Of a DNA stretch of 38,205 nt, positions 11,431 through 38,205 are shown one piece after another. The notes below the pieces were generated by a model. The model was not told where the DNA came from and did not search any database. It saw only the letters and a program-made list of their open reading frames with translations. Positions within the stretch are counted from its first letter, which is position 1. Each line of letters begins with the position of its first letter. A program made the position numbers and the translations under genes. The stretch lies in NCBI GenBank assembly GCA_045532715.1, contig JAZSGM010000180.1:1-38205 (forward strand), in the 5' to 3' direction. The DNA is from Clostridia bacterium (lineage in GTDB: Bacteria; Bacillota; Clostridia; UBA1381; UMGS1253).

Positions 11431-13113
11431 ATGAGAATTTTTGACATGCATACGCATATGGGCATTAAGTGCGGTAAGCCGGATGTGCTTGCCGAAATGG
11501 AAAAGGCAGGCGTGTACGGCGGCTGCATCTTTTCGCCGCGCCCGAAGGAGCACAGTAAGGAGTTTGGCGTGGAATTTGAAGAGCGGCTTGCGGCGGTGCT
11601 GGATTTTACGAAGGACCACCGCGACAGACTTTTTCCGATTCTGTGGGTTGACCCGTATGAAAAGAATATTTTTGAAAACATTGATAAGGCTGTAAAGGCA
11701 GGCATCGATGGCTTTAAGATGATTTGCTCGACCTATTTTGTGTATGAAGAGCAGTCACTTGCGGTACTAAAGCATATTGCATCTTATAACAAGCCGGTGT
11801 TTTTCCACTCCGGCATTTTGTGGGACGGCAAGGTTTCGTCGGCATACAATCGCCCGATGAACTGGGAGGCGCTTTTGCCCATCAAGGGATTGCGTTTTTC
11901 GATGGGGCACTGCTCGTGGCCGTGGATTGACGAATGTATTGCGATGTACGGCAAGTTTTTAAATGCCGACAACAAGGGCACGCGTGAGCACGCAGAGATG
12001 TTTCTGGATTTGACACCCGGCACGCCGGACATCTACCGTGAGGAGCTTTTGGAAAAGCTGTTTACCATCGGCTATGATTTTGAAAACAATGTATTTTTCG
12101 GAACGGACTGTTATTCACAGCACTACAATCCGGACTGGACAAAGCATTGGTTAGATACTGACCGCAAAATTATGGACAAGCTCGGTGTCAGCAAGGCGGT
12201 ACGCGAAAAGATTTACTTCGACAATCTTCTGCGCTTCCTTGGTAAGAGTGAGGCAGTTATTGAGCATGCACGTCCGAGTGAGGACAATTCCAATGCGTGG
12301 AGCCCGGTCAATGGCGCAGTGTATGAAATCATTGAGAAGTGGTATAAAAAATTAAGCTTCCCGAAGGTGTATGATGCGGCGTTTAAAAAGGCAATGCGCG
12401 ACATTAAAATTTCCGACGCGATTACAATAGAGAATTATGATATGAAAGAAACGGATGGTAAGCGCAATTTGCTTTCGTATTTATTCTTCTGTGAGGCGCT
12501 TTGCGAAAAGTATGCCGCAAAGGGTATCAGCGAGGATGTTTTAATAGCTACATTGCAGGATATTGTAATTTGGCTCGATACATGGAGCGACTTAAAGGGC
12601 GAGATGTATCTTGGCGAACTCTCGTGGCTCAGATATCATATGTCGATGCGGCTGTTCAGGCTCGGCAGATTGCAGTTTTGTATAGCAGGCGCAGGGCATG
12701 ATATTCCGTCTGCAAATGTAAAAAAAGGCGAACCGGTCATTGAAGTGCACATTCCGGAGGCCGGCAAATTGGACCGTGCAAGCTGCGAAGCCAGCCTTGC
12801 GCAGGCAAGAGAATTTTTCAAAACATATTTTCCGGAATACGATTACAAGTGCTTTACCTGCCACAGCTGGCTCTTGGACGAATCCTTAAAGGACATTTTA
12901 GGTGCAGAGAGCAACATAAGCAAATTCCGTGAGATGTTTGTTTTGGATGTTGCAGAAGAATCTGATGCAATATTTAAGTATGTGTTCCGCTGGAATGCGA
13001 CGAGAAATCAAATACTGAAAATGCCGTGTGCCTCTGGCTTTGCAAGCAGGGTGCAAAAAAAGGCGCGCGAAGGCGGTAAGTTTTACGAAACCGTCGGTTG
13101 GATTCAAAAATAG
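11431..13113 (+). CDS. Fusion: amidohydrolase-type TIM-barrel hydrolase + GNAT-like acyltransferase-domain module
   Basis: N-terminus MRIFDMHTHMG and FHSGILWD fit metal-dependent amidohydrolases. The C-terminal ~270 aa carry GRLQF, VHIPE and CHSWLLD motifs that I remember from stand-alone 'acyltransferase domain-containing' proteins. Confidence 0.6.
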   Translation: MRIFDMHTHMGIKCGKPDVLAEMEKAGVYGGCIFSPRPKEHSKEFGVEFEERLAAVLDFTKDHRDRLFPILWVDPYEKNIFENIDKAVKAGIDGFKMICSTYFVYEEQSLAVLKHIASYNKPVFFHSGILWDGKVSSAYNRPMNWEALLPIKGLRFSMGHCSWPWIDECIAMYGKFLNADNKGTREHAEMFLDLTPGTPDIYREELLEKLFTIGYDFENNVFFGTDCYSQHYNPDWTKHWLDTDRKIMDKLGVSKAVREKIYFDNLLRFLGKSEAVIEHARPSEDNSNAWSPVNGAVYEIIEKWYKKLSFPKVYDAAFKKAMRDIKISDAITIENYDMKETDGKRNLLSYLFFCEALCEKYAAKGISEDVLIATLQDIVIWLDTWSDLKGEMYLGELSWLRYHMSMRLFRLGRLQFCIAGAGHDIPSANVKKGEPVIEVHIPEAGKLDRASCEASLAQAREFFKTYFPEYDYKCFTCHSWLLDESLKDILGAESNISKFREMFVLDVAEESDAIFKYVFRWNATRNQILKMPCASGFASRVQKKAREGGKFYETVGWIQK

Positions 13114-13118
13114 AAAAA

Positions 13119-13150
13119 CGCTCTCCCTTATTTAAGGGGAGGGCGTTTTA
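13119..13150. terminator. Bidirectional terminator (560-aa gene / smORF copy 1)
   Basis: AAAAA, stem CGCTCTCCC.../...GGGGAGGGCG, TTTT. Confidence 0.7.
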
Positions 13151-13157
13151 GCTTTGC

Positions 13158-13271
13158 TTAGCTTTCTTTTGCGCAAATATATGCATCTTCCATTTTGCAT
13201 TGCAGCTGCTTTAATTCTTCAATCATATCCGTGATTTTGTTAAACACTTCAAAATACAGTTTTTCGTCCAT
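13158..13271 (-). CDS. Unannotated 37-aa small protein MDEKLYFEVFNKITDMIEELKQLQCKMEDAYICAKES (copy 1)
   Basis: ATG at 13271, GAGGTG SD (13283-13278) 6 nt upstream, TAA at 13160-13158, terminator downstream. A second copy encodes the identical peptide, and its only 2 nt differences are third-position synonymous changes. Confidence 0.65.
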   Translation of the reverse strand: MDEKLYFEVFNKITDMIEELKQLQCKMEDAYICAKES

Positions 13272-13285
13272 CGTTTTCACCTCTA

Positions 13286-13317
13286 AAATAAAAAAATGCG
13301 CAGCCGAGGCCACGCAT
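13286..13317 (-). terminator. Intrinsic terminator between the leader and the smORF RBS (copy 1)
   Basis: Minus strand: AUGCGUGGC CUCG GCUGCGCAU (9-bp stem) followed by U7. It ends about 8 nt before the SD. Confidence 0.75.
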
Positions 13318-13435
13318 GAAAAACGAGGTCTGTTTGCTGCGACGCAATCACATACACCAACACGGTTATGAGAACCAGACCTGCGTTTTTACCTGAACGC
13401 AAGTCGTGTTAGTGTATATTGTGATTTCGTCGCAA
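13318..13435 (-). ncRNA. Structured leader / candidate sRNA, variant 1
   Basis: Starts at the predicted TSS. The 29-nt arm (13433-13405) pairs with the 26-nt arm (13364-13339), about 25 bp with one 3-nt bulge. Includes G-U pairs that would be A-C on the other strand. The apical 40 nt contain a 9-bp hairpin. Confidence 0.6.
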
Positions 13436-13439
13436 CATT

Positions 13440-13468
13440 ATTGTATCATATTTTTAAAAGGCTGTCTA
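13440..13468 (-). promoter_or_regulatory. Sigma-A-type promoter of module 1
   Basis: Minus strand: TAGACA (13468-13463), 17 nt, TACAAT (13445-13440), with TG one base upstream of the -10. Confidence 0.65.
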
Positions 13469-13492
13469 TACCTTTTCGTCGCAGATTTCGAC

Positions 13493-13530
13493 AAAAAGCG
13501 CCCTTCCCTTAGATCAGGGAGGGCGTTTTA
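13493..13530. terminator. Hairpin terminator at the junction of the two modules
   Basis: AAAAA GCGCCCTTCCCT tagatc AGGGAGGGCG TTTT. Confidence 0.7.
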
Positions 13531-13537
13531 GCTTTGC

Positions 13538-13651
13538 TTAGCTTTCTTTTGCGCAAATATATGCATCTTCCATTTTGCATTGCAGCTGTTTTAATTCTTC
13601 AATCATATCCGTGATTTTGTTAAACACCTCAAAATACAGTTTTTCGTCCAT
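13538..13651 (-). CDS. Unannotated 37-aa small protein, copy 2 (identical peptide)
   Basis: Same SD and ATG geometry as copy 1. It differs from copy 1 only at 13589 (AAG>AAA, Lys21) and 13628 (GAA>GAG, Glu8). Confidence 0.65.
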   Translation of the reverse strand: MDEKLYFEVFNKITDMIEELKQLQCKMEDAYICAKES

Positions 13652-13665
13652 CGGTTTCACCTCTA

Positions 13666-13697
13666 AAATAAAAAAATGCGCAGCCGAAGCCACGCAT
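13666..13697 (-). terminator. Intrinsic terminator between the leader and the smORF RBS (copy 2)
   Basis: Same hairpin as copy 1, with the loop changed to UUCG, followed by U7. Confidence 0.75.
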
Positions 13698-13826
13698 GAA
13701 AAATACATGACTCCGTGTCGTCAAACAAATCCACATTCTAACAGAAAGTATGCAGAATAGAGCATGTATTTTTACCGGAAGGTAAAAAACATACTTTCTG
13801 TTAATGTATTGAGATTTGTTTGACAG
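13698..13826 (-). ncRNA. Structured leader / candidate sRNA, variant 2
   Basis: The 35-nt arm (13824-13790) pairs with the 33-nt arm (13752-13720): 12 bp, an internal loop, then 5 + 13 bp. The apical 37 nt contain an 8-bp hairpin UUUUUACC-uucc-GGUAAAAA. Confidence 0.6.
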
Positions 13827-13830
13827 CATT

Positions 13831-13859
13831 ATTATATCATATTTTCAAAAGGCTGTCTA
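13831..13859 (-). promoter_or_regulatory. Sigma-A-type promoter of module 2
   Basis: Minus strand: TAGACA (13859-13854), 17 nt, TATAAT (13836-13831), with an upstream TG. Confidence 0.65.
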
Positions 13860-13883
13860 TACCTTTTCGTCGCAGATTTCGAC

Positions 13884-13908
13884 AAAAAGCGCCCATATGG
13901 GCGCTTTT
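13884..13908. terminator. Bidirectional terminator after the kinase gene
   Basis: AAAAA GCGCCCA t(a) TGGGCGC TTTT. Confidence 0.7.
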
Positions 13909-13933
13909 AATCGGCTTTGCCAAAGATGCATAT

Positions 13934-14683
13934 TTATTCGTAGTCCATTACATCTGCCCAGGCAAGCAGGAATTCACGTTCGTGCTCGTTGCCCTTCACA
14001 GACTGGGATGCAGCGACGATCGGCATCCATTTTTGCACATACTGCATTGCGGTATCGCTCTTTTTGCAGAACAAGTCGAGATATTTCTTTGCACCTGCTT
14101 CATCACCGGCAAGGCAGAACAAGAGGTAGGTTCTTGCTGCATCGGCGGAGGCATTGCCCTGCGTTGCGTGCGACCAGTCAAGGATATACGGCGTGCCGTC
14201 TGTTTGTACAACAATGTTGGACGGATTAAAGTCGCCGTGGCAGACCTTGTTGTGCTTCGGCATACCTTCAAGGCGGGTATGCAGCTCGTAGCGCGTGGTC
14301 GCATCTAAAGTGGTCTGGCTGATTTTGCGATGCATTTTATCACGCAGCTTGTTTAAGAGCGGTGCGGTTTTACTGTGCATCGTAAGCTGTAAATCCACAA
14401 AGAAGGCGAGATATTCGTCCTTCTTGTCCGGATTTTCTTCCATCAGCTGTGCCAGGGTTTTGCCTTCGATATATTCGGTAATGATTGCCCACTTGCCGTC
14501 GATGGTGGTAACCTCTAAAATTTTCGGAATGTTTAAGCCGGTATCCTCTACTCTTGCGTGGTTGAGCGCTTCGTTTAAAATGTCAGCCTTGGAAAAATCG
14601 GCATTGAATACTTTGATACAGCGGTTCTCTTCGAGATAGACCGTCTTGTTTTTTCTCACTGCAATGACTTTATCGAGCTTCAT
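13934..14683 (-). CDS. APH/choline-kinase-family small-molecule kinase
   Basis: 249 aa with the catalytic-loop motif CHGDFNPSNIVV and YILDWSHA. Confidence 0.75.
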   Translation of the reverse strand: MKLDKVIAVRKNKTVYLEENRCIKVFNADFSKADILNEALNHARVEDTGLNIPKILEVTTIDGKWAIITEYIEGKTLAQLMEENPDKKDEYLAFFVDLQLTMHSKTAPLLNKLRDKMHRKISQTTLDATTRYELHTRLEGMPKHNKVCHGDFNPSNIVVQTDGTPYILDWSHATQGNASADAARTYLLFCLAGDEAGAKKYLDLFCKKSDTAMQYVQKWMPIVAASQSVKGNEHEREFLLAWADVMDYE

Positions 14684-27495: not shown

Positions 27496-28605
27496 ATGTT
27501 TGAAAGAAGGATGAAGATGAGCGTATTATCCGAAAAAGAATTTCGGGCGGTTCTGGATGCCTTTGGGTTTAAAACCGGCAGCAGACCGTTCGGTAACGGA
27601 CATATTAATGATACATATCTGATTGAAGGCACACCGAAATACGTGCTGCAGAGAATTAACAAGGACGTGTTTAAAAACCCGGTTGCCCTGATGGACAACG
27701 TAGCTGCTGTAACAGAATACATTACAGCGCGCACCGCACAAATGGGGAAGGACACGACGCGCTGCACACTGCATATGTGCAAGACAACGGACGGTGCGAA
27801 TGTGTTTTGTGCCGCCAACGGTGAATATTACAGAGCCTATCAGTTTGTGGATGATTGCGACAGTGTTGAAAAGTCTGACGATTTGAATTATTACTACAAT
27901 TCGGCAATTGCCATCGGTAATTTTTACAGTATTTTAGACGGCTTTGATGCCTCGACACTGACGGAAACTATCCCAAATTTTCACCATACAAAACAGCGTT
28001 TTGAAAATTTAAAGGCTGCCATTGCGGCGGACAAGGCCGGCAGAGCAGCATCCGTGCAGGCGGAAATTGATTTTGCGCTTGCGCATGAAAACATCACAGG
28101 CATCATTTTGGATGCCATGCAGGCGGGTAGTGTTCCCGTTCGTGTAACGCATAACGACACGAAGATGAACAATATCCTCTTTGATTCGACAACCAAAGAG
28201 CCGGTTTGCTTAATCGACTTAGATACCGTTATGCCGGGCTCTTTCTTATATGATTACGGTGATTTTCTGCGTTTTGCAGCCAACACCGGTTCAGAAGATG
28301 ACATCGATCTTTCTCTGGTCAACTTCGACCTGGAGATTTTTGAAATCTTCACCAAGGGTTGCCTGGATTCCATGGGCAGCACTCTGACAGAAACAGAGCT
28401 TCGCTTAATGCCAATTTCCGCGGCCATTATGACCTATGAATGCGGCATCCGTTTCCTGGAGGATCACCTCAACGGCGATACCTATTTTAAAGTGCACCGC
28501 GAAAATCACAACCTTGACCGCGCACGCACTCAGTTCAAGCTCGTTTCCGACATCGAACAAAATCTTGAAACGATGCACAGCTTTATCAAAAGCTACCATA
28601 ACTGA
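27496..28605 (+). CDS. nahK: N-acetylhexosamine 1-kinase
   Basis: Co-linear similarity, from memory, to Bifidobacterium longum NahK (GNGHINDTY, DASTLTETIPNFHHTKQRFENLKAAIAADKAGRAA, RVTHNDTKMNNILFD, IDLDTVMPGS). The start may be the ATG at 27517. Confidence 0.85.
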   Translation: MFERRMKMSVLSEKEFRAVLDAFGFKTGSRPFGNGHINDTYLIEGTPKYVLQRINKDVFKNPVALMDNVAAVTEYITARTAQMGKDTTRCTLHMCKTTDGANVFCAANGEYYRAYQFVDDCDSVEKSDDLNYYYNSAIAIGNFYSILDGFDASTLTETIPNFHHTKQRFENLKAAIAADKAGRAASVQAEIDFALAHENITGIILDAMQAGSVPVRVTHNDTKMNNILFDSTTKEPVCLIDLDTVMPGSFLYDYGDFLRFAANTGSEDDIDLSLVNFDLEIFEIFTKGCLDSMGSTLTETELRLMPISAAIMTYECGIRFLEDHLNGDTYFKVHRENHNLDRARTQFKLVSDIEQNLETMHSFIKSYHN

Positions 28606-28869: not shown

Positions 28870-29718
28870 GTGCTGTTTTTATTTTACGAGAATTGTAATT
28901 TCTGCTGTTTTCGGAAGTGCGAGTATGCGCGCGAGCACGGTGGCAAGGATGTGCGCACACGCTCCTGCTTTCGCATAGACGATCAGGTTTTCATCGACGC
29001 AGGTGCCGATTTTGCGGCACAGTCGATGCACTATCGCGAAGACATTTTTGATTTGGAGCATATTTTATTTACGCATACGCACCACGACCACTGCGACGAT
29101 TATCTGTACTGGTACCGTATGGTGGTCAAGGGCGAGGATAAGCCGACGCACAAGCTGCACATGTATTTTGCACCGGGCGGTAAGGCAAAAATGGAAAAGG
29201 GGCTTGCGCGCTTTGCAAACGACCCGCGCTGCAACCCGGATGTTGTAGAGCTGCACGAGTTAGAGTTTTATAAGACAGTGCAGGTCGGACCGTATAAGGT
29301 AACGCCGCTTAAGGGCCATCATACGACGAATTATGAAGCGCATTCGGCGAACTACTTAATCGAATTTCCGAGCGGCAAAAAGATGTATTATGCGGTGGAT
29401 TCCGGCATCTATGTCGAGGAAACCTTCGAATACCTTAAAAATGTAAAGCTCGATTTGCTTATCGGCGAATGTACATTTATGACGGAAACGGAATACCCGG
29501 GCGGTCATATGAATTTGCATATGGAACAGCTGACGCTGGATCGACTTTGGGAGCAGGGTACAATTGATAAAGACTCCCTTATTTACATAACGCACATTTG
29601 CGGCGTATATAAAACGCACGCGGAGCTTGAGCAGTACTGGCAGGCGCTCGATGTGCCGTACGATGTAAAGGTCGCTTACGATGGCTTATCAATTGCAGAA
29701 GAAGCGAAAGTATTTTAA
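28870..29718 (+). CDS. MBL-fold metallo-hydrolase (PhnP-like) with a chimeric 5' end
   Basis: THTHHDHCDD (HxHxDH) and CEYAREHGGKDVRTRS motifs. GTG start with an AGGTGG SD. Codons 3-16 are the reverse complement of the 3' end of the lyase gene (the 42-bp repeat). Confidence 0.75.
   Translation: MLFLFYENCNFCCFRKCEYAREHGGKDVRTRSCFRIDDQVFIDAGADFAAQSMHYREDIFDLEHILFTHTHHDHCDDYLYWYRMVVKGEDKPTHKLHMYFAPGGKAKMEKGLARFANDPRCNPDVVELHELEFYKTVQVGPYKVTPLKGHHTTNYEAHSANYLIEFPSGKKMYYAVDSGIYVEETFEYLKNVKLDLLIGECTFMTETEYPGGHMNLHMEQLTLDRLWEQGTIDKDSLIYITHICGVYKTHAELEQYWQALDVPYDVKVAYDGLSIAEEAKVF
28876..28917. repeat. 42-bp perfect direct repeat, left copy
   Basis: TTTTTATTTTACGAGAATTGTAATTTCTGCTGTTTTCGGAAG is identical to 35352-35393. 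Confidence 0.95.
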
Positions 29719-29727
29719 AGCAAACTG

Positions 29728-29766
29728 AAAAAGGAGGTGTGGAAATTTTCCACACCGCTATTTTTG
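29728..29766. terminator. Bidirectional terminator hairpin, copy A of a repeated element
   Basis: AAAAAGGAGGTGTGGAAATTTTCCACACCGCTATTTTT. About 35/39 identical to 35318-35356. Confidence 0.8.
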
Positions 29767-31422
29767 AATTGTGACAGTGTTTTTGTTATAATCTACGGTT
29801 ATAACGGTTGCGTCGCTGTAGGTTACCGCAAATACATCTTTACGGATTTCCTTGTGTGCTTGGATGAATTCTGTTTGCAGGTGCACCAGGGTTTTGTATT
29901 CTTCATAGGCTTCCTTGATTTTAGATGCGCTGTATGCAAGCTGCTCGTCTGTGTCAATCATCAAATCCTCTTTGCCGAGCCAATCGTCCTGATGACTGCC
30001 CTCTAAGAATTTAGAATAGATATAAAACGCCGGTCTTGCGCCGTCTTCTATTACCGTAAGACGGTTTTTCGGATGCTTAATCGGATAATTTACGGTGTCT
30101 GTTGTGGAGTTGTAGAGCATAATGCCGTGGTACACAATCTGCCAGAGCGGCACGGTTTTGTCGCAAAGCGCATCCTCTGTTGCCGGCCAGGACACATAAA
30201 GACCGTAATCTAACAGACCGGCTGCAAAGTCAAAGCACCCTTCGGATGCAAAGCCGCCGAACAAATCCCGGCTGAGTTGCATGATTTCATTATAAATCTC
30301 AACCGTTTGCTTAGAATTGACCGGGTGATTTTTATCGTAGCACCACGCCGGCGGCACAACGGTCATTACATCTATGTAATGCAGTCCGGCAAAGCCTAAG
30401 TCCTTTACTTTCGGCAGTTCGGCCTTTGCAAGCTCCAATGCTTTTGCAGGGCAAAGTTTATGCGTTCTGCCGCCGCTCCAGTTTATGGTGTCCATCACCG
30501 GTGTGCCGTCCTTGCGCTTAGCAACGATATCTTCCGAGAAGGTGTCGGCAATGCTGTAGCCGTCGGTGCTGTTGGTGTGGCACACAATCTGATAGCCGTT
30601 GTTTTGCGCGTAGGCAATTAAGTGGCGCAGCCTTTCTTCACCACCGAGTTTTTCTTCGACGGGAAAGATTTGCGGCCATCTGCCGTCGTGTCCGCTTTTG
30701 TTCCAGCCGACCAGGCAAAGCTGTGCCTTGTCAACGCCTTGCGCTTTTAAAGCATCGATCAAAACGCACACGCGGTCAAAGGTGCAGGCAACGTGCATCT
30801 CGGGTTCGTTTTCGTTCGTTTGCTCAAGCACGGTTGCAGGTGCGGGTTTCCAGCCCATTCGGATGCGGATTTCCGGCGCCTTTGCTGCATAGGCCAAAGC
30901 CTCGCGTTCTTTCATTTTTTCTAAAAGCGGTTTTATGTGACCGTTATTTAGCTGATAATTTCTGTACGCAACTGCCATATCGCTGTAGGTCGCCACAGCA
31001 TCGAGTTTTAAAACGCGAATGCGGATATCCTCGTACGGACGGTCGCCGTTTAAGTAAAATCTCGGATAAATATAATATTTTTCGTCCTTTACACCGAAAA
31101 CAAGGTGAAATTCGTGTTTGAAGCCTTCTGCAATCAAAAGAAGACACAGATTTTGTTTTTTTACGCCGAAAATCGGCATTAAATCCTGCTTATACACGCG
31201 CTCTCCGTCAGGTTTTTTATTAAACAAACAAAGGCGACTGCCCTTTTTATTTGCGTCAGCAATCACATAATAGCCGTCTTCGCCTGCGGTGGCTGTAAAG
31301 CTTTCTGCAACAAAGTCAACATACGCCGCGCCGGGAGAAACCTTTTCTTTTTCCAGCGTATAGGTATTATCGCTTTTTTGAGCAGAATAAGTATTGCCGA
31401 GATTATCTGAAATCTTCCACAT
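29758..31422 (-). CDS. Glycoside-hydrolase-like TIM-barrel protein (DUF5696-like)
   Basis: 554 aa, no signal peptide. LVGWNKSGHDGRWPQIFP and GLHYIDVMT resemble GH-like barrels. Its start overlaps the upstream Fe-S gene by 20 nt. Confidence 0.5.
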   Translation of the reverse strand: MWKISDNLGNTYSAQKSDNTYTLEKEKVSPGAAYVDFVAESFTATAGEDGYYVIADANKKGSRLCLFNKKPDGERVYKQDLMPIFGVKKQNLCLLLIAEGFKHEFHLVFGVKDEKYYIYPRFYLNGDRPYEDIRIRVLKLDAVATYSDMAVAYRNYQLNNGHIKPLLEKMKEREALAYAAKAPEIRIRMGWKPAPATVLEQTNENEPEMHVACTFDRVCVLIDALKAQGVDKAQLCLVGWNKSGHDGRWPQIFPVEEKLGGEERLRHLIAYAQNNGYQIVCHTNSTDGYSIADTFSEDIVAKRKDGTPVMDTINWSGGRTHKLCPAKALELAKAELPKVKDLGFAGLHYIDVMTVVPPAWCYDKNHPVNSKQTVEIYNEIMQLSRDLFGGFASEGCFDFAAGLLDYGLYVSWPATEDALCDKTVPLWQIVYHGIMLYNSTTDTVNYPIKHPKNRLTVIEDGARPAFYIYSKFLEGSHQDDWLGKEDLMIDTDEQLAYSASKIKEAYEEYKTLVHLQTEFIQAHKEIRKDVFAVTYSDATVITVDYNKNTVTIQK

Positions 31423-34469: not shown

Positions 34470-35318
34470 ATGCACATTGCAGATATCAATCCGCATATAC
34501 GATTTGCCGAAGAGATTACCTATGCATTGAAAAACCGCAGGTCCTATGTAAAGGATTGTCGTATATTTTATGTTTTGGGCGGCAGAGGCAGCATACGGAT
34601 ACAGGAGAAGGAATATATATTAAAAGAGAATACTTTGTTTTATTGTGCAGGCGGGCAGGAATACAGCATCAATGCCGAAGATTATCTGCATTTCTATGCT
34701 TTAAACTTTGATTTGTCGCAGGCGCACAGAGCGCTTGTCACGCCCTTCGCTCCGGTGGATTTGCAAACAACAAGTCCGACGGGCGTTGTGGATTTGTGCC
34801 TTGTTGAAGACAGCGGGTTTTTAGATTCATTTTTCATTGCGGAGCATGCGGGGGAGTTTAAAAACGGTGTAGCGACTATTGTTAAAGAATTTGCTACGCA
34901 GCAGCTTTTTTTCAGAGAAACCGCCGGCGCGGTGCTGAAGAAAATATTGATTGATTTGCATAAAATGAATACGGATGCTGAAAATAATTCAGCCTCCGCC
35001 GTGCAAAAAATTACGGAATACATACAGCTGCACTACATGGAAGAGATTAAAAACAGCGCTTTAGCAGAGCTGGTGGGGTATCACGAATACTATTTAAATC
35101 GCTGCTTTGTACAGTATACCAGTATGAGTATGCACAAATATGTTTTAAACCTGCGTATTGCAGAGGGCAAGCGACTGCTGCTCAATACCGATTTATCCGT
35201 TGCGAATATTGCTGTACAGGTGGGCTTTAACAGCGCGGCGCATTTTTCCGCTTATTTTAAAAAGGAAACAGATGCTTCGCCGTTAGAGTACAGAAGCAGC
35301 TTTAAACATAGGATATAA
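34470..35318 (+). CDS. AraC-family transcriptional regulator (cupin + HTH)
   Basis: 282 aa from the ATG at 34470 (GGAGGG SD). C-terminal HTH (VANIAVQVGFNSAAHFSAYFKKETDASPLEY). Divergent from the Fe-S operon. Confidence 0.9.
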   Translation: MHIADINPHIRFAEEITYALKNRRSYVKDCRIFYVLGGRGSIRIQEKEYILKENTLFYCAGGQEYSINAEDYLHFYALNFDLSQAHRALVTPFAPVDLQTTSPTGVVDLCLVEDSGFLDSFFIAEHAGEFKNGVATIVKEFATQQLFFRETAGAVLKKILIDLHKMNTDAENNSASAVQKITEYIQLHYMEEIKNSALAELVGYHEYYLNRCFVQYTSMSMHKYVLNLRIAEGKRLLLNTDLSVANIAVQVGFNSAAHFSAYFKKETDASPLEYRSSFKHRI

Positions 35319-35356
35319 AAAAGGCGGTGTGGAAAAATTCCACACCGCTCATTTTT
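35318..35356. terminator. Bidirectional terminator hairpin, copy B of the repeated element
   Basis: AAAAAGGCGGTGTGGAAAAATTCCACACCGCTCATTTTT. 11-bp stem, AAA loop. Confidence 0.8.
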
Positions 35357-35393
35357 ATTTTACGAGAATTGTAATTTCTGCTGTTTTCGGAAG
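35352..35393. repeat. 42-bp perfect direct repeat, right copy (native 3' end of the lyase gene)
   Basis: Covers the stop codon plus the last 12 codons (LPKTAEITILVK) of the minus-strand gene. Confidence 0.95.
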
Positions 35394-38205
35394 GGCGCCT
35401 TTTCGAACAGCGGTTGCCGTAATTATAGCGGTACCGGCTTTCTTTAAAGTGCATGTGCCGTTTGCATCAATACTGATGATAGAAGCATCCGAGCTTGCAT
35501 AAGTTACCGTATATGTGCTCAGGTCTACCGTCGCGCCTGCAGGATCGGTTGCAGAGATGTTCACGGTCATTGTGTCGCCGACCTTGCCTTCCGTATCGGA
35601 AAGCTTGAAGATGGCATTCCATGCCTTCTGGTCTTCTGCTTCCATTGTAGCATCTGCATAGAAACGGACTTCTGCGTAGCTGTTATATGCGCTGCCATCG
35701 CTGTTGGAGATGGTGTTGAATCGTACATATCTTGCACGCACATCGCCGAGTGCAAACACGGTCGGACCATCTTTAAGCTCGGTTGTAATGCTTGGCAGAA
35801 GTGTTGTCCATGTCTTGCCGTCGTCGGAGATATCCACGCTTAATGTAAATGAACGCTTGTTGGAGCCGGTGGTTGAAAGTGCAAAGGAGTGCAGCGGCTT
35901 TGCTTCGCCAAAGTCAAAGCTGATCCATTGTTTGCCTTCGCCTGTCCATCTGTTTTCCATACCGGAGGAAATTACGCCGTCTGCGATACCCCACTTCGGA
36001 TATTTGCCCCAGCCGGTGGAGGAGTCGATGTCCATAATCTGAATGGAGGTCGGGTGATCCGGAATGCCGGTGCTGCCTGCTACAAGCAATTCCATCTTGG
36101 AAATAGAGCCTGCACCACCGGTGCCTGCAATGCCTTCAAACGGATTTGGTGTAAAGTGAACATTGTAGTTTACGCCATCGATTGTCACTACAGCCGGGTT
36201 GCCCTGCGCTATGGAAGCTGCGTATGCGCTACCGTTTGTCAAAGCGGTAACCTCGCCAGCAGGCGCATTGACGTAGTAGTCTTTCATTTCCGGACGGAAG
36301 CTGATTTCGTTTGCGCCGGCAAGGATGCGGATGTCGAGCATCTTGCAGGCATCTGCAATTGTATTTTCACTGTAGGCAATATCTTCATCGGAAATTATGA
36401 TAAGACCTCTGTCATCCCAGAATACCTTCTTACCGAGTGCTTCTGCAAGTGCGCGAAGCGGGATGAGCGTTCTGTCGTTATACGTCTGTGCCGGAACATC
36501 CAACATTACGGTTTGTCCGTTCACATTCATTTCCTTGGAGCCGAGTACCATACGGATGACATTGTCGCCGCAGGTGATATCTACAGTCTGTGTTGCCTCT
36601 GTCCAGTCGACTCTTGCACCGAAGTTTTCGGCAATAAATCTTACCGGTACGAGTGTTCTGCTGTTTTCCGTAAACGGATAAACATCCTTGTTGGCGGTAT
36701 CTACATACGTACGTACGCCCTTTGCATATGCGGCAGGGGAGCCGAGCTTGAGTGCGACTACATTGCCGAGGCGTTCCTCGATGCGCTTTGTTTCGCCTTT
36801 GTTTACACTCCAGTCTGCCATCGGCGTTACCACTGTTACATCATTCGGGATGCCTTCGCCTGCGCGCAGCGGAATAAATTCTACGCTCAGCGTCATTTCT
36901 GTGATGTTGTTTACGTGGATTGCGAGCTTTTTATCGCCGGTGTAAGCTGCCATGAACTCGCCCTTCTGCTTTGGCGGATTCGGGCTCGTCGGAAGCGGCT
37001 CAATCGGCATAACGGAAAATGCTGCATCCGTTGGACCTGCGTTGATTCTCACATACAATCTCTTACCGTTGATTTCCAGGAGTGCACCCTTGCCGTCAGC
37101 GGAAAGGGTGATGTCGGCATTGGTGTGCATAAACCAGTAAACTTCGGACGGAACTTTTGTCGAAATTTCGTCCTGCATGACGATTCTTGTACGGTTGTTT
37201 GTCATCATCATACCGCGGTGATGCTTGTTTAAGTCATCGCGTGTACGCGTCATATCTAAAATGCCGTAAGAACCGTTTTCTGCAGAATCGGAGTCGAGCA
37301 ATACTGCGAAACCGTCGTTTTTCTGTCCCGGACCTGCATCCGGATTGATGGTAATGGTGTTATTACCTTCTGTTCTTCTGTAATAGTAGTCCGTACCTTC
37401 GCCGTCGTAACCGCTTTCGATTGTGTAGGTGTTGGAAACGGAGTCTTTACCGGTTAAAAGTGCAAAACGCTCGCCCTCCCAGTCGAGTACGAAAGTACCG
37501 AGACCGTTGTAGGCGTGGAAGGTTTCGTTGTCGCCACCCTGCATTGCCGCAAAGAGCATTGTTTCTCTGTCCCAGCTCGAACGCATCGAGATACCATTCG
37601 GTCCATACTGGCGGTCGTTTTTGTAGAACTTATCGAGTACAAAGTCTGCAGAGCTTACCTTTTCCGGATTGTAGTACACAATCGCTACGCAGGCATCCAT
37701 GCCGCCGTAGAGCATAGATGGATCACTCTGATTTTTCGTCAGTTCATACCATGCGTACTGCGGCTGGTCATATCTGTCTGCAATTCTTAAAAAGGCAGGG
37801 GACGAAACACGACCGCAGGTGGATGCATTATAGTTAAAGCATTTTGTTGCACCGTCATAGTAAATGACGTGGTCAGGTGTCTGTGCAAAGTTTGCCTGAA
37901 GTGCGAAGTTTAAGCAATCCGGCAAGGTTTTGCCCGGTGCGATGCATTCTTCAAAGCTTGCAACGCTGGCAATCAGGTTGCCGACGCCGTAGTTCCAGTA
38001 TTCCATGGATTCCGCAAAACCGCCGTCGTCGGAGATTTCTACGAAGGTGTTCGGCAGATTCTGGGAAATCTCGCGGAAGATATATTCCGAAACGTTCGGC
38101 ACGAGATCGTTGATTGCGATTGCGAACATAACATAGTCGGTCTGTACGCCCATCGCCTGGTTGTGGTATGCATGAAGCACTGTGTAGCCGTTGGAGAGCA
38201 GACCT
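35355..38205 (-). CDS. Large multidomain polysaccharide lyase (heparinase II/III-like), 5' end outside the window
   Basis: The frame is open to the window edge. Heparinase II/III-like region (FHAYNGLGTFVLDWEGERF), two copper-amine-oxidase-N-like repeats (TLVPVRFIAENFGARVDW, TLIPLRALAEALGKKVFW), a discoidin/F5-8 type C-like region (WISFDFGEAKPL, ARYVRFN) and a C-terminal Big_2-like domain. Confidence 0.7.
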   Translation of the reverse strand, partial: GLLSNGYTVLHAYHNQAMGVQTDYVMFAIAINDLVPNVSEYIFREISQNLPNTFVEISDDGGFAESMEYWNYGVGNLIASVASFEECIAPGKTLPDCLNFALQANFAQTPDHVIYYDGATKCFNYNASTCGRVSSPAFLRIADRYDQPQYAWYELTKNQSDPSMLYGGMDACVAIVYYNPEKVSSADFVLDKFYKNDRQYGPNGISMRSSWDRETMLFAAMQGGDNETFHAYNGLGTFVLDWEGERFALLTGKDSVSNTYTIESGYDGEGTDYYYRRTEGNNTITINPDAGPGQKNDGFAVLLDSDSAENGSYGILDMTRTRDDLNKHHRGMMMTNNRTRIVMQDEISTKVPSEVYWFMHTNADITLSADGKGALLEINGKRLYVRINAGPTDAAFSVMPIEPLPTSPNPPKQKGEFMAAYTGDKKLAIHVNNITEMTLSVEFIPLRAGEGIPNDVTVVTPMADWSVNKGETKRIEERLGNVVALKLGSPAAYAKGVRTYVDTANKDVYPFTENSRTLVPVRFIAENFGARVDWTEATQTVDITCGDNVIRMVLGSKEMNVNGQTVMLDVPAQTYNDRTLIPLRALAEALGKKVFWDDRGLIIISDEDIAYSENTIADACKMLDIRILAGANEISFRPEMKDYYVNAPAGEVTALTNGSAYAASIAQGNPAVVTIDGVNYNVHFTPNPFEGIAGTGGAGSISKMELLVAGSTGIPDHPTSIQIMDIDSSTGWGKYPKWGIADGVISSGMENRWTGEGKQWISFDFGEAKPLHSFALSTTGSNKRSFTLSVDISDDGKTWTTLLPSITTELKDGPTVFALGDVRARYVRFNTISNSDGSAYNSYAEVRFYADATMEAEDQKAWNAIFKLSDTEGKVGDTMTVNISATDPAGATVDLSTYTVTYASSDASIISIDANGTCTLKKAGTAIITATAVRKGALPKTAEITILVK

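Follow-up and report, generated by a model that had tools for sequence, protein, structure and literature searches.

The window analyzed here is a 38,205-nucleotide (nt) stretch of DNA from a Clostridia bacterium (contig JAZSGM010000180.1 of assembly GCA_045532715.1), in which two tandem transcription units each place a long, structured RNA leader in front of a small open reading frame (smORF). Coordinates refer to this whole stretch, and the leaders were read as RNA of the minus strand. The tandem duplication spans positions 13885 to 13115 (-), with a period of 380 to 391 nt; we refer to the upstream copy (unit 2) as V2 and to the downstream copy (unit 1) as V1. The units are built alike: a sigma-70-type promoter, whose -10 box is TG extended, is followed by an imperfect hairpin of approximately 100 to 110 nt, a short linker, an intrinsic terminator, a Shine-Dalgarno (SD) sequence, the open reading frame (ORF), and a second terminator. 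The elements from promoter to ORF all lie on the minus strand in both copies. In V2, the promoter (13831..13859; TAGACA, 17 nt, and TG-extended TATAAT, with 11 of 12 consensus matches and the TG present) stops 5 to 6 nt short of the base of the long arm P1 (13719..13825; 32 pairs, with an apical hairpin and a 3' bulge). The arm is followed by an intrinsic terminator (13670..13697; 9-bp stem, UUCG loop, and U tract) and by the SD sequence GAGGUG (13663-13658) and a 37-codon smORF (13651-13538; together 13538..13663). The corresponding elements of V1 are a promoter found by consensus scan (13440..13468; TAGACA, 17 nt, and TG-extended TACAAT), a P1 arm with the same apical hairpin and 3' bulge (13338..13434; 24 pairs), a terminator (13290..13317; 9-bp stem, CUCG loop, and U tract), and the SD sequence GAGGUG (13283-13278) with its smORF (13271-13158; together 13158..13283). 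The product of the smORF, MDEKLYFEVFNKITDMIEELKQLQCKMEDAYICAKES, is identical in the two units.

The two copies are 96% identical in the promoter block and 98% identical from the terminator to the ORF, and the hairpin and linker between these blocks align poorly. The same hairpin shape is nevertheless formed in both despite the diverged sequence, with leader fold energies of -69.9 kcal/mol for V1 (z score, -8.65) and -61.7 kcal/mol for V2 (z score, -8.34). The units (13115-13894) thus form a mosaic of near-identical flanks around a hairpin and linker that have diverged into two sequence classes, a pattern suggesting that the flanks evolve in concert or that leader cassettes are exchanged. The same order, with V2 upstream and V1 downstream, also occurs in four of the loci collected below (L004, L005, L006, and L009).

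The strand at the tip of each arm, here called X, is complementary to a segment, X', that directly precedes the terminator. In V1, X (13376..13390; AAAAACGCAGGUCUG) and X' (13319..13332; CAGACCUCGUUUUU) form 14 standard pairs (AAAAACG(C)AGGUCUG at 13390-13376 with 13332-13319), leaving C13383 bulged. The duplex has a predicted energy of -18.2 kcal/mol, compared with a mean of -8.0 kcal/mol for shuffled X' (z score, -4.0; 5 of 2,000 shuffles equal or better). In V2, X (13760..13773; AAAAAUACAUGCUC) and X' (13699..13713; GAG-U-CAUGUA-UUUUU) also form 14 bp: AAAAAUACAUG (13773-13763) pairs perfectly with CAUGUAUUUUU (13709-13699), and the helix continues with CUC (13762-13760) on GAG (13713-13711), with U13710 bulged between. 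This duplex reaches -15.6 kcal/mol against a shuffled mean of -5.2 kcal/mol (z score, -5.1; 1 of 2,000 shuffles equal or better). Duplexes formed across the copies are poor (-8.5 and -3.9 kcal/mol), and the V1 and V2 leaders represent different sequence classes whose X and X' sets do not cross-pair. A single nucleotide (C13318 in V1 and C13698 in V2) separates X' from the terminator stem (13317-13296 and 13697-13676, respectively). X is also the 3' strand of the small apical hairpin, in which it pairs with a third segment, Xa, so that Xa and X' are rivals for X. Xa was located in the fold of V1 (13396..13405; GACUUGCGUU) and, in V2, by the fold and by covariation across the family (13781..13793; UAUGUUUUUUACC). 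An earlier note on this DNA, made from the sequence alone, had described an apical A5 segment complementary to the segment abutting the terminator in both copies, and had X doubling as the 3' strand of the apical hairpin; the complementarity was recovered at the positions that it gave, and the double role of X is seen in both minimum-free-energy folds. Its estimates of a 25- to 30-bp stem and a 6- to 10-nt linker were close to the values found here (24 and 32 pairs and linkers of 7 and 5 nt in V1 and V2, respectively). Two other roles for these segments were considered and dropped: X' as an anti-SD element, given that ACCUC occurs in V1 alone, and a U.A-U triplex of both U5 tracts on the A5 tract, which would have a strand polarity at odds with the usual Hoogsteen geometry.

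X' can also pair with the terminator. In V2, CGGAGUCAUGUAU (13715-13703), which includes the 5' part of X', pairs with AUGCGUGGCUUCG (13697-13685) across a UUUUC loop to form an antiterminator hairpin (13685..13715) that is present in the minimum-free-energy fold. The antiterminated fold of V2 has an energy of -59.8 kcal/mol, versus -57.6 kcal/mol with the terminator enforced. The equivalent in V1 (13308..13330) pairs GACCUCG (13330-13324) with CGUGGCC (13314-13308) and contains A.C and U.U mismatches (approximately -4.9 kcal/mol). The predicted basal states of the copies also differ, with V2 folding as antiterminated and V1 as terminated. One of the V1 mismatches is particular to the window: position 13329 is A here (CAGACC) and G in most orthologs, namely the V1 copies of L004 to L009 and L011 (CAGGCC). 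A13329 gives a U-A pair in X:X' (U.G with G) and an A.C mismatch in the antiterminator, so that the window allele is predicted to terminate more; the orthologs with G13329 make 7 to 8 antiterminator pairs (e.g., L004).

Relatives of these leaders were collected in two ways. First, a protein search with the 56-aa extended ORF as the query against 5.8 billion protein clusters showed that the peptide is rare (10 clusters). The unit was found in the contigs of these 10 clusters and in seven loci of GTDB genomes titled "Clostridia bacterium," with goat colon among the sources. Some of these loci are syntenic with the window, and others lie beside housekeeping genes unrelated to it, such as rplM-rpsI, hpf, murA, valS, trmB, or secF; several genomes have two to three dispersed copies of the smORF unit. 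Because these leaders were gathered via the peptide, their selection was independent of RNA pairing, and X:X' is retained in all of them while its sequence changes. For example, UACAUG/CAUGUA of V2 is replaced by UGCAUG/CAUGCG in L013, L014, L016, L018, and L020, and CG(C)AGGUCUG/CAGACCUCG of V1 is replaced by CG(C)AGGCUUG/CAGGUCUCG in L021 and by CGC(A)GGCU(U)GG/CCGGCCGCG in L015 and L017. Second, metagenomic contigs were scanned with a pattern made up of only the U5 tract and the terminator, which gave at least 120 matches. The leader architecture was present upstream of almost every listed match, although the pattern did not select for it. Among the shared features, an extended -10 box lies at a fixed distance from P1 (ending 5 to 7 nt before its base), the stem base is conserved (UGCGACACAA...UUGUGUCGC), and the 5' side carries an AAUAU-type bulge. 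The apical hairpin ends in GGUAAAAA, the 3' bulge is rich in pyrimidines, and the linker reads AGCAAUCGGAGC. With a profile derived from the alignment, 158 copies were detected in the collected DNA, exactly 2 of them in the window, and the family is larger than the sampled set. Its sources are human gut and rumen metagenomes and uncultured Clostridia.

The earlier note had proposed asking whether the pairing covaries in further homologs, and it does. We aligned 96 nonredundant leaders, including both window copies, with MAFFT and without fitting the alignment to a structure (alignment A3). X:X' was paired in 86.0% of the cells, compared with 37 to 56% for slid controls; 11 of its 16 pairs changed on both sides, and its covariation was 0.226 versus 0.161 (0 of 500 shuffles). 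Xa:X, which uses the same X columns, was paired in 81.9% of the cells (slid, 39 to 64%), with 6 of 11 pairs changed on both sides and a covariation of 0.225 versus 0.141 (0 of 500). The lower stem of P1 gave the strongest signal (95.9% paired; slid, 30 to 48%; 9 of 11 pairs changed on both sides; 0.439 versus 0.171; 0 of 500). Since Xa:X and X:X' both covary on the same X nucleotides, they represent genuine alternative folds. X:X' ends at columns 167:244, and an extension beyond this point was dropped, as 62 of 84 sequences cannot form pair 168:243. Cognate X/X' duplexes had a mean energy of -17.2 kcal/mol, compared with -14.6 kcal/mol for noncognate ones (permutation P ≤ 5e-4), in a test slightly biased by the choice of the A-run anchor on the cognate duplex. 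RNAalifold recovered only the lower stem of P1 and the terminator from the MAFFT alignment, because the variable parts are misaligned.

These data bear on the proposal that the complementarity is without function, with X' being a diverged duplicate of Xa, part of a palindrome at the DNA level, or a product of chance. Xa does resemble X', both being complementary to X, and the A5/U5 part taken alone is of low complexity. However, the compensatory changes in 11 of the 16 pairs far exceed the slid and shuffled controls, the duplexes of the window copies stand 4 and 5 standard scores below their shuffles, and two pairs at the linker toehold (165:247 and 166:246) covary outside the reach of Xa:X. 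In addition, G.U pairs are frequent in X:X' (e.g., UG in 47 sequences at 158:255); read from the opposite strand, or as part of a DNA cruciform, such pairs would turn into A.C mismatches, and the functional strand is therefore the smORF-sense RNA. We consider a functionless origin highly improbable. An integron attC site or a miniature inverted-repeat transposable element was likewise dropped, as every unit comes with a promoter and an ORF of its own and the copies show compensatory changes instead of being identical repeats.

The earlier note had found no conserved antiterminator. One was found here, strong in V2 and weak in V1, and paired in 84.3% of the cells across the family (slid, 19 to 59%). 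In its consensus form, the linker and the 5' part of X' (GGAGCUAUGCG) form the complement of the terminator's 5' half and loop (UGCGUAGCUUC). Pair 250:268 occurs as UA in 27 sequences, CG in 24, UG in 10, and CA in 6 (Fisher's P = 2e-5, not corrected for phylogeny). When nascent transcripts were folded after being cut before the 3' strand of the terminator, 95 of the 96 formed the antiterminator, with a mean of 9.8 pairs versus 6.3 for shuffled segments. In the full-length minimum-free-energy folds, 59 members had the antiterminator and 37 the terminator. An alternative pairing of X with the 3' strand and U tail of the terminator was dropped, as it fits only some class B members.

The four helices have similar predicted strengths. 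Median energies over the 96 leaders were -14.1 kcal/mol for Xa:X, -15.4 kcal/mol for X:X', -12.5 kcal/mol for the antiterminator, and -15.4 kcal/mol for the terminator, and the combination of Xa:X with the antiterminator was favored in 48 members and that of X:X' with the terminator in the other 48. This balance looks like that of a bistable expression platform, judging from the computed energies. Established here are the four helices, the sharing of a strand between neighboring helices, the covariation of X:X', Xa:X, and P1, and the balance of predicted energies.

We consider it fairly likely that both units are promoter-proximal transcription-attenuation leaders operated by this chain of four helices, in which consecutive helices have one strand in common. 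First would come Xa:X on top of P1, then X:X' as an anti-antiterminator, then an antiterminator in which the linker and X' pair with the terminator's 5' half and loop, and last the terminator itself. In the proposed ON state, X would stay in the apical hairpin, leaving X' free to pair with the 5' half of the terminator as it emerges, and polymerase would read on into the SD sequence and smORF. In the OFF state, X' would capture X, the 5' half of the terminator would remain free, and the terminator would form stacked on X:X', stopping transcription. We infer that capture would start at a 3- to 4-nt toehold, (G)CUCY, in the 3' bulge, which would pair with the first-transcribed linker sequence GAGC, and that X' would then displace Xa in the 5'-to-3' direction by strand displacement, ending with U5 on A5. 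The invariant U5 tract may in addition pause polymerase just before the 5' half of the terminator emerges and so provide a time window for the switch; in the non-template strand it reads TTTTTC or TTTTTT, which we take to resemble the NusG-dependent TTNTTT pause motif of Bacillus. An effector would bias the choice between Xa:X and X:X' at the apical junction, at the 3' bulge, or through kinking or opening of P1. Few unpaired leader nucleotides are invariant in A3, and this scarcity, together with the heterogeneous downstream genes and the compensatory changes at the stem base, argues against a small-metabolite aptamer. A protein or a kinetic or global signal is the more likely effector.

Several results weigh against this attenuation mechanism. 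The switch is predicted from sequence and computed folds. The antiterminator is weak in V1. Shuffled segments still reach at least six antiterminator pairs in 67 of the 96 members, and segments swapped between members retain 9.1 pairs, so that support for the antiterminator comes mainly from conservation and the evidence for it is moderate. Conservation of the terminator is in part given by construction, as most members were gathered by a terminator-sequence pattern. In a model restricted to nested pairs, the X:X' state is 22 to 25 kcal/mol costlier than the P1 state in both window copies, and X:X' appears in none of the 96 minimum-free-energy folds while the 5' strand of P1 is present; X:X' would thus need either a kinked pseudoknot geometry or an effector. 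Finally, 18 of 119 leaders have no detectable downstream ORF.

In this nested model, X:X' excludes P1. The earlier note had argued for two mutually exclusive folds on the grounds that the long stem and X:X' are incompatible. Exclusive folds are upheld by the covariation and by the shared nucleotides of X and X'; incompatibility with the stem was not established, and the exclusivity that can be demonstrated follows from shared nucleotides and not from reach. In a crude straight-stem geometry, the connectors (median, 14 nt) would have to span a P1 of approximately 37 helical steps (median), which is impossible in 68 of the 96 members; V1 can be spanned (19 nt versus 28 steps) but V2 cannot (10 nt versus 36 steps). 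However, P1 is interrupted by a bulge that is conserved and asymmetric (medians of 5 nt and 1 nt for its 5' and 3' sides, respectively), and the arms below and above it are similar in length (approximately 13 bp below and 18 steps above). A kink at this bulge could place the apex beside the stem base, allowing X:X' to form as a pseudoknot with P1 intact, and the balanced helix energies favor this putative arrangement. A K-turn in the stem was dropped, as the GA/GA arrangement seen in some members is absent from both window copies.

The same energy gap and the same spans would be expected if X:X' formed only after the 5' strand of P1 had been removed or occupied, e.g., through processing by RNase III, Y, or J or through an antisense RNA or a protein acting in trans, after which a stable 5' hairpin pair of X:X' and the terminator would govern the stability or translation of the processed mRNA and not termination. 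A near-perfect duplex of 24 to 32 bp is a plausible substrate for RNase III, and when the 5' strand of P1 is omitted, X:X' with the terminator becomes the best fold of V1 (14 pairs). Yet X:X' wins in just 12 of the 96 members under this treatment, and the energy balance of the four helices is meaningful only if P1 is neutral between the states. The opposite strand offered no promoter for an antisense RNA (see below), and the compensatory changes tolerated in the lower stem of P1 make a single trans-acting antisense RNA unlikely. Prior processing therefore seems to us an improbable account of the data.

Leaders without an ORF lend themselves to another interpretation, in which the element is a stand-alone small RNA (sRNA) of approximately 150 nt, its U5-hairpin-U7 end serves as a module for an Hfq-type chaperone, X:X' masks or unmasks this module or stabilizes the RNA, and expression of the ORF is incidental readthrough. 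Enterobacterial sRNAs are known to bind Hfq through such a layout, with a U-rich stretch 5' of the terminator and a long U tail. Tandem leaders in which no ORF follows the first copy (L125, L099, L066, and L108, the last with three copies) fit this idea, as do the 18 leaders counted above, although some ORF-less copies resemble decayed duplications (e.g., L042, with a truncated XRE start). On the other hand, a same-strand ORF with an SD sequence follows 101 of the 119 leaders within 110 nt of the terminator, mostly 15 to 40 nt away; the terminator-competing helix is conserved, for which an sRNA has no need; and no conserved single-stranded seed is evident. We regard the sRNA interpretation as unlikely, if slightly less so than prior processing, and retain transcription attenuation as the preferred reading.

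In a more far-reaching form of the attenuation model, which we offer tentatively, the leaders would be a previously unrecognized class of effector-responsive RNA switches present in multiple copies per genome in gut and rumen Clostridia, in which the distal loop of a kinked arm of approximately 30 bp is captured by the nascent linker through toehold displacement timed by the U5 pause, and a heterogeneous regulon is placed under one global signal. A protein, a second messenger, or the kinetics of transcription might provide that signal, and the regulon would include XRE regulators, proteins that are secreted or exposed at the surface, and Spo0A-linked helical peptides.

The genes found downstream of the leaders are diverse, including 63-aa XRE regulators, an AMP-binding enzyme, an M23 peptidase, a MazE/AbrB-like protein, zinc-ribbon membrane proteins, many signal-peptide proteins, and the 37-aa peptide of the window. 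The peptide has no Pfam or NCBIfam family and is predicted to form one continuous helix (residues 3 to 36; predicted local distance difference test score, 95). FNKITDMIEELK is invariant among its homologs and its two cysteines are not conserved; a ribosomally synthesized and posttranslationally modified peptide precursor was dropped as a candidate on account of the latter. Both smORF units carry TGTCGAA 19 nt upstream of the -35 box (13878..13884 in V2 and 13487..13493 in V1), a perfect match to the core recognized by Spo0A of Bacillus and Clostridioides difficile (PMC3485338). Of the 16 smORF leaders, 14 have TGTCGAA upstream, compared with only 3 of the 103 other leaders. The smORF units thus have a 0A box at a conserved position, as in Spo0A-controlled promoters, with binding being putative, and this placement suggests sporulation-phase control of the 37-aa peptide. 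The boxes have T-rich and A-rich flanks and derive part of their sequence from the U tract of the terminator before them.

Several further observations concern individual members and the surroundings of the units. Tandem leaders 211 to 262 nt apart, in which the first terminator is followed by the next promoter with no ORF between, occur in L125 (oriented positions 693 and 904), L099, L066, L108 (three copies), and L042, the last of which retains a truncated XRE gene start after its first leader; these ORF-less copies would be either stand-alone leader RNAs or decayed duplications. The terminator sequence UUUUUUGUGCGUGGCUUCGGCUGCGCACUUUUU occurs without a leader at L071 5667-5699, after an upstream stop codon and before the leader promoter, and has equivalents in L086 and L123; the terminator module thus appears to be reused on its own. 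The leader of L003 (upstream of 734) precedes an ORF with an ATA start and has one X:X' pair broken by an A-to-U change in X, together with a compensatory double change in the terminator stem (GGC/GCU to GAC/GUC); this copy is probably decaying. In L131, an RNA of the Gut-1 family lies approximately 250 nt downstream of the leader on the opposite strand (RF01706; 422-496 [-]; 60.6 bits, with a gathering score of 50), and was the sole gathering-level match in the Rfam search described below.

The neighborhood of the units in the window is chromosomal, with AdhE and an APH-family kinase upstream, a convergent amidohydrolase/GNAT gene downstream, and carbohydrate-active genes elsewhere. The window has two APH-family phosphotransferase genes, of which one (13934-14683) lies directly upstream of the tandem units, an arrangement that recurs in syntenic contigs, and the other is at 27496-28605. 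Two repeats were also noted: a 46-nt repeat (28876-28921 and 35352-35397; 98% identical) and a 43-nt terminator-like repeat (29728-29770 and 35318-35360; 84% identical). At the 3' end of a 941-aa gene (35318-35397), the two lie side by side, and at 28876-29770 they flank an ORF with a metallo-beta-lactamase fold; this paired arrangement may reflect duplication of a gene end or the scar of an insertion.

A search of the window, 16 loci, and the leaders themselves against Rfam 15 at gathering and permissive thresholds (to E ≤ 10 and E ≤ 1) returned no family for the leader. Plasmid collections gave no leader match, and phage collections gave only two unannotated fecal "Bacteriophage sp." fragments; the U5-terminator pattern had 0 matches in IMG/VR, and protein-pattern scans of metagenomic and viral contigs had none. 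Literature searches by topic and by literal sequence turned up no description of the leader family. The conserved leader strings are absent from the first 200 of the 408 supplementary files of Fremin and Bhatt (2021), and the family may be among the thousands of unnamed candidates of that study, in which helix-turn-helix (HTH)-XRE genes are noted as frequent neighbors. As a family with neither an Rfam model nor a description that we found, the leaders represent a concrete orphan regulatory RNA with a testable structure. If the attenuation model is correct, one leader architecture gates many unrelated genes in abundant and mostly uncultured gut and rumen Clostridia, with two copies of a sporulation-linked peptide being the gated genes in the window, and the leaders, with their toehold and strand displacement, would show in nature a principle that is used to design synthetic RNA devices. 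The identity of the effector would reveal a regulon-wide signal in organisms with almost no known regulation.

The leaders share the hallmarks of attenuators: a terminator on the same strand between promoter and ORF, a helix that engages the 5' strand of the terminator, and a helix that sequesters the 5' strand of the antiterminator. The earlier note had likened them to antisense-controlled attenuators as well. Like the antisense attenuation systems of plasmid rep genes (e.g., pT181 and pIP501/pAMbeta1), they use alternative pairings in which a freed segment lets the terminator form; however, the units here are chromosomal and dispersed, and all partners of the switch lie within one RNA. A consensus scan of 12900-14100, which a weak promoter could escape, placed all four sigma-70-like sites on the minus strand and none on the opposite strand, and with no plasmid match either, the antisense comparison was not borne out. 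The trp-type leader of Escherichia coli (1:2, 2:3, and 3:4) likewise has a chain of overlapping helices in which the first state decides the fate of the terminator. In contrast, the chain here is one layer longer, the transcript is predicted to start at the stem base, and no conserved leader ORF was found: the ORFs overlapping the leader differ between V1, V2, and their homologs, and because the -10 box ends 5 to 7 nt before the stem base, the AUGs near it lie upstream of the predicted start.

T-box leaders also combine a long 5' arm with a competing antiterminator and terminator and occur in many copies before different genes in Firmicutes. The present leaders lack the T-box sequence and a specifier loop, have no match to RF00230, precede genes other than those for aminoacyl-tRNA synthetases or amino acid metabolism, and have an anti-antiterminator layer that is missing in T-box leaders. 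S-box (SAM-I) OFF riboswitches, whose P1 is an anti-antiterminator, resemble them in having balanced alternative helices that choose between terminator and antiterminator, probably cotranscriptionally, and the K-turn and pseudoknot of SAM-I would be a precedent for pairing between a distal loop and a 3' segment made possible by a kinked arm. Unlike SAM-I, the family has no conserved multihelix ligand pocket and no Rfam match, and its regulon is heterogeneous. The same three-layer logic of terminator, antiterminator, and anti-antiterminator before a regulated ORF, in several copies per genome, is found in the PyrR-controlled pyr attenuators of Bacillus subtilis. There, too, the differences are clear: the present leaders have no PyrR binding-loop motif and no match to the Rfam PyrR family (RF00515), their downstream genes are unrelated to pyrimidine metabolism, and their anti-antiterminator is long range, with its 5' strand at the tip of a 24- to 40-bp arm and locked in a fourth helix, Xa:X. 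The leaders therefore appear to be an undescribed family that uses a known regulatory principle, and what is distinctive in them is the fourth helix, the distal shared strand on a long arm, and the built-in toehold.

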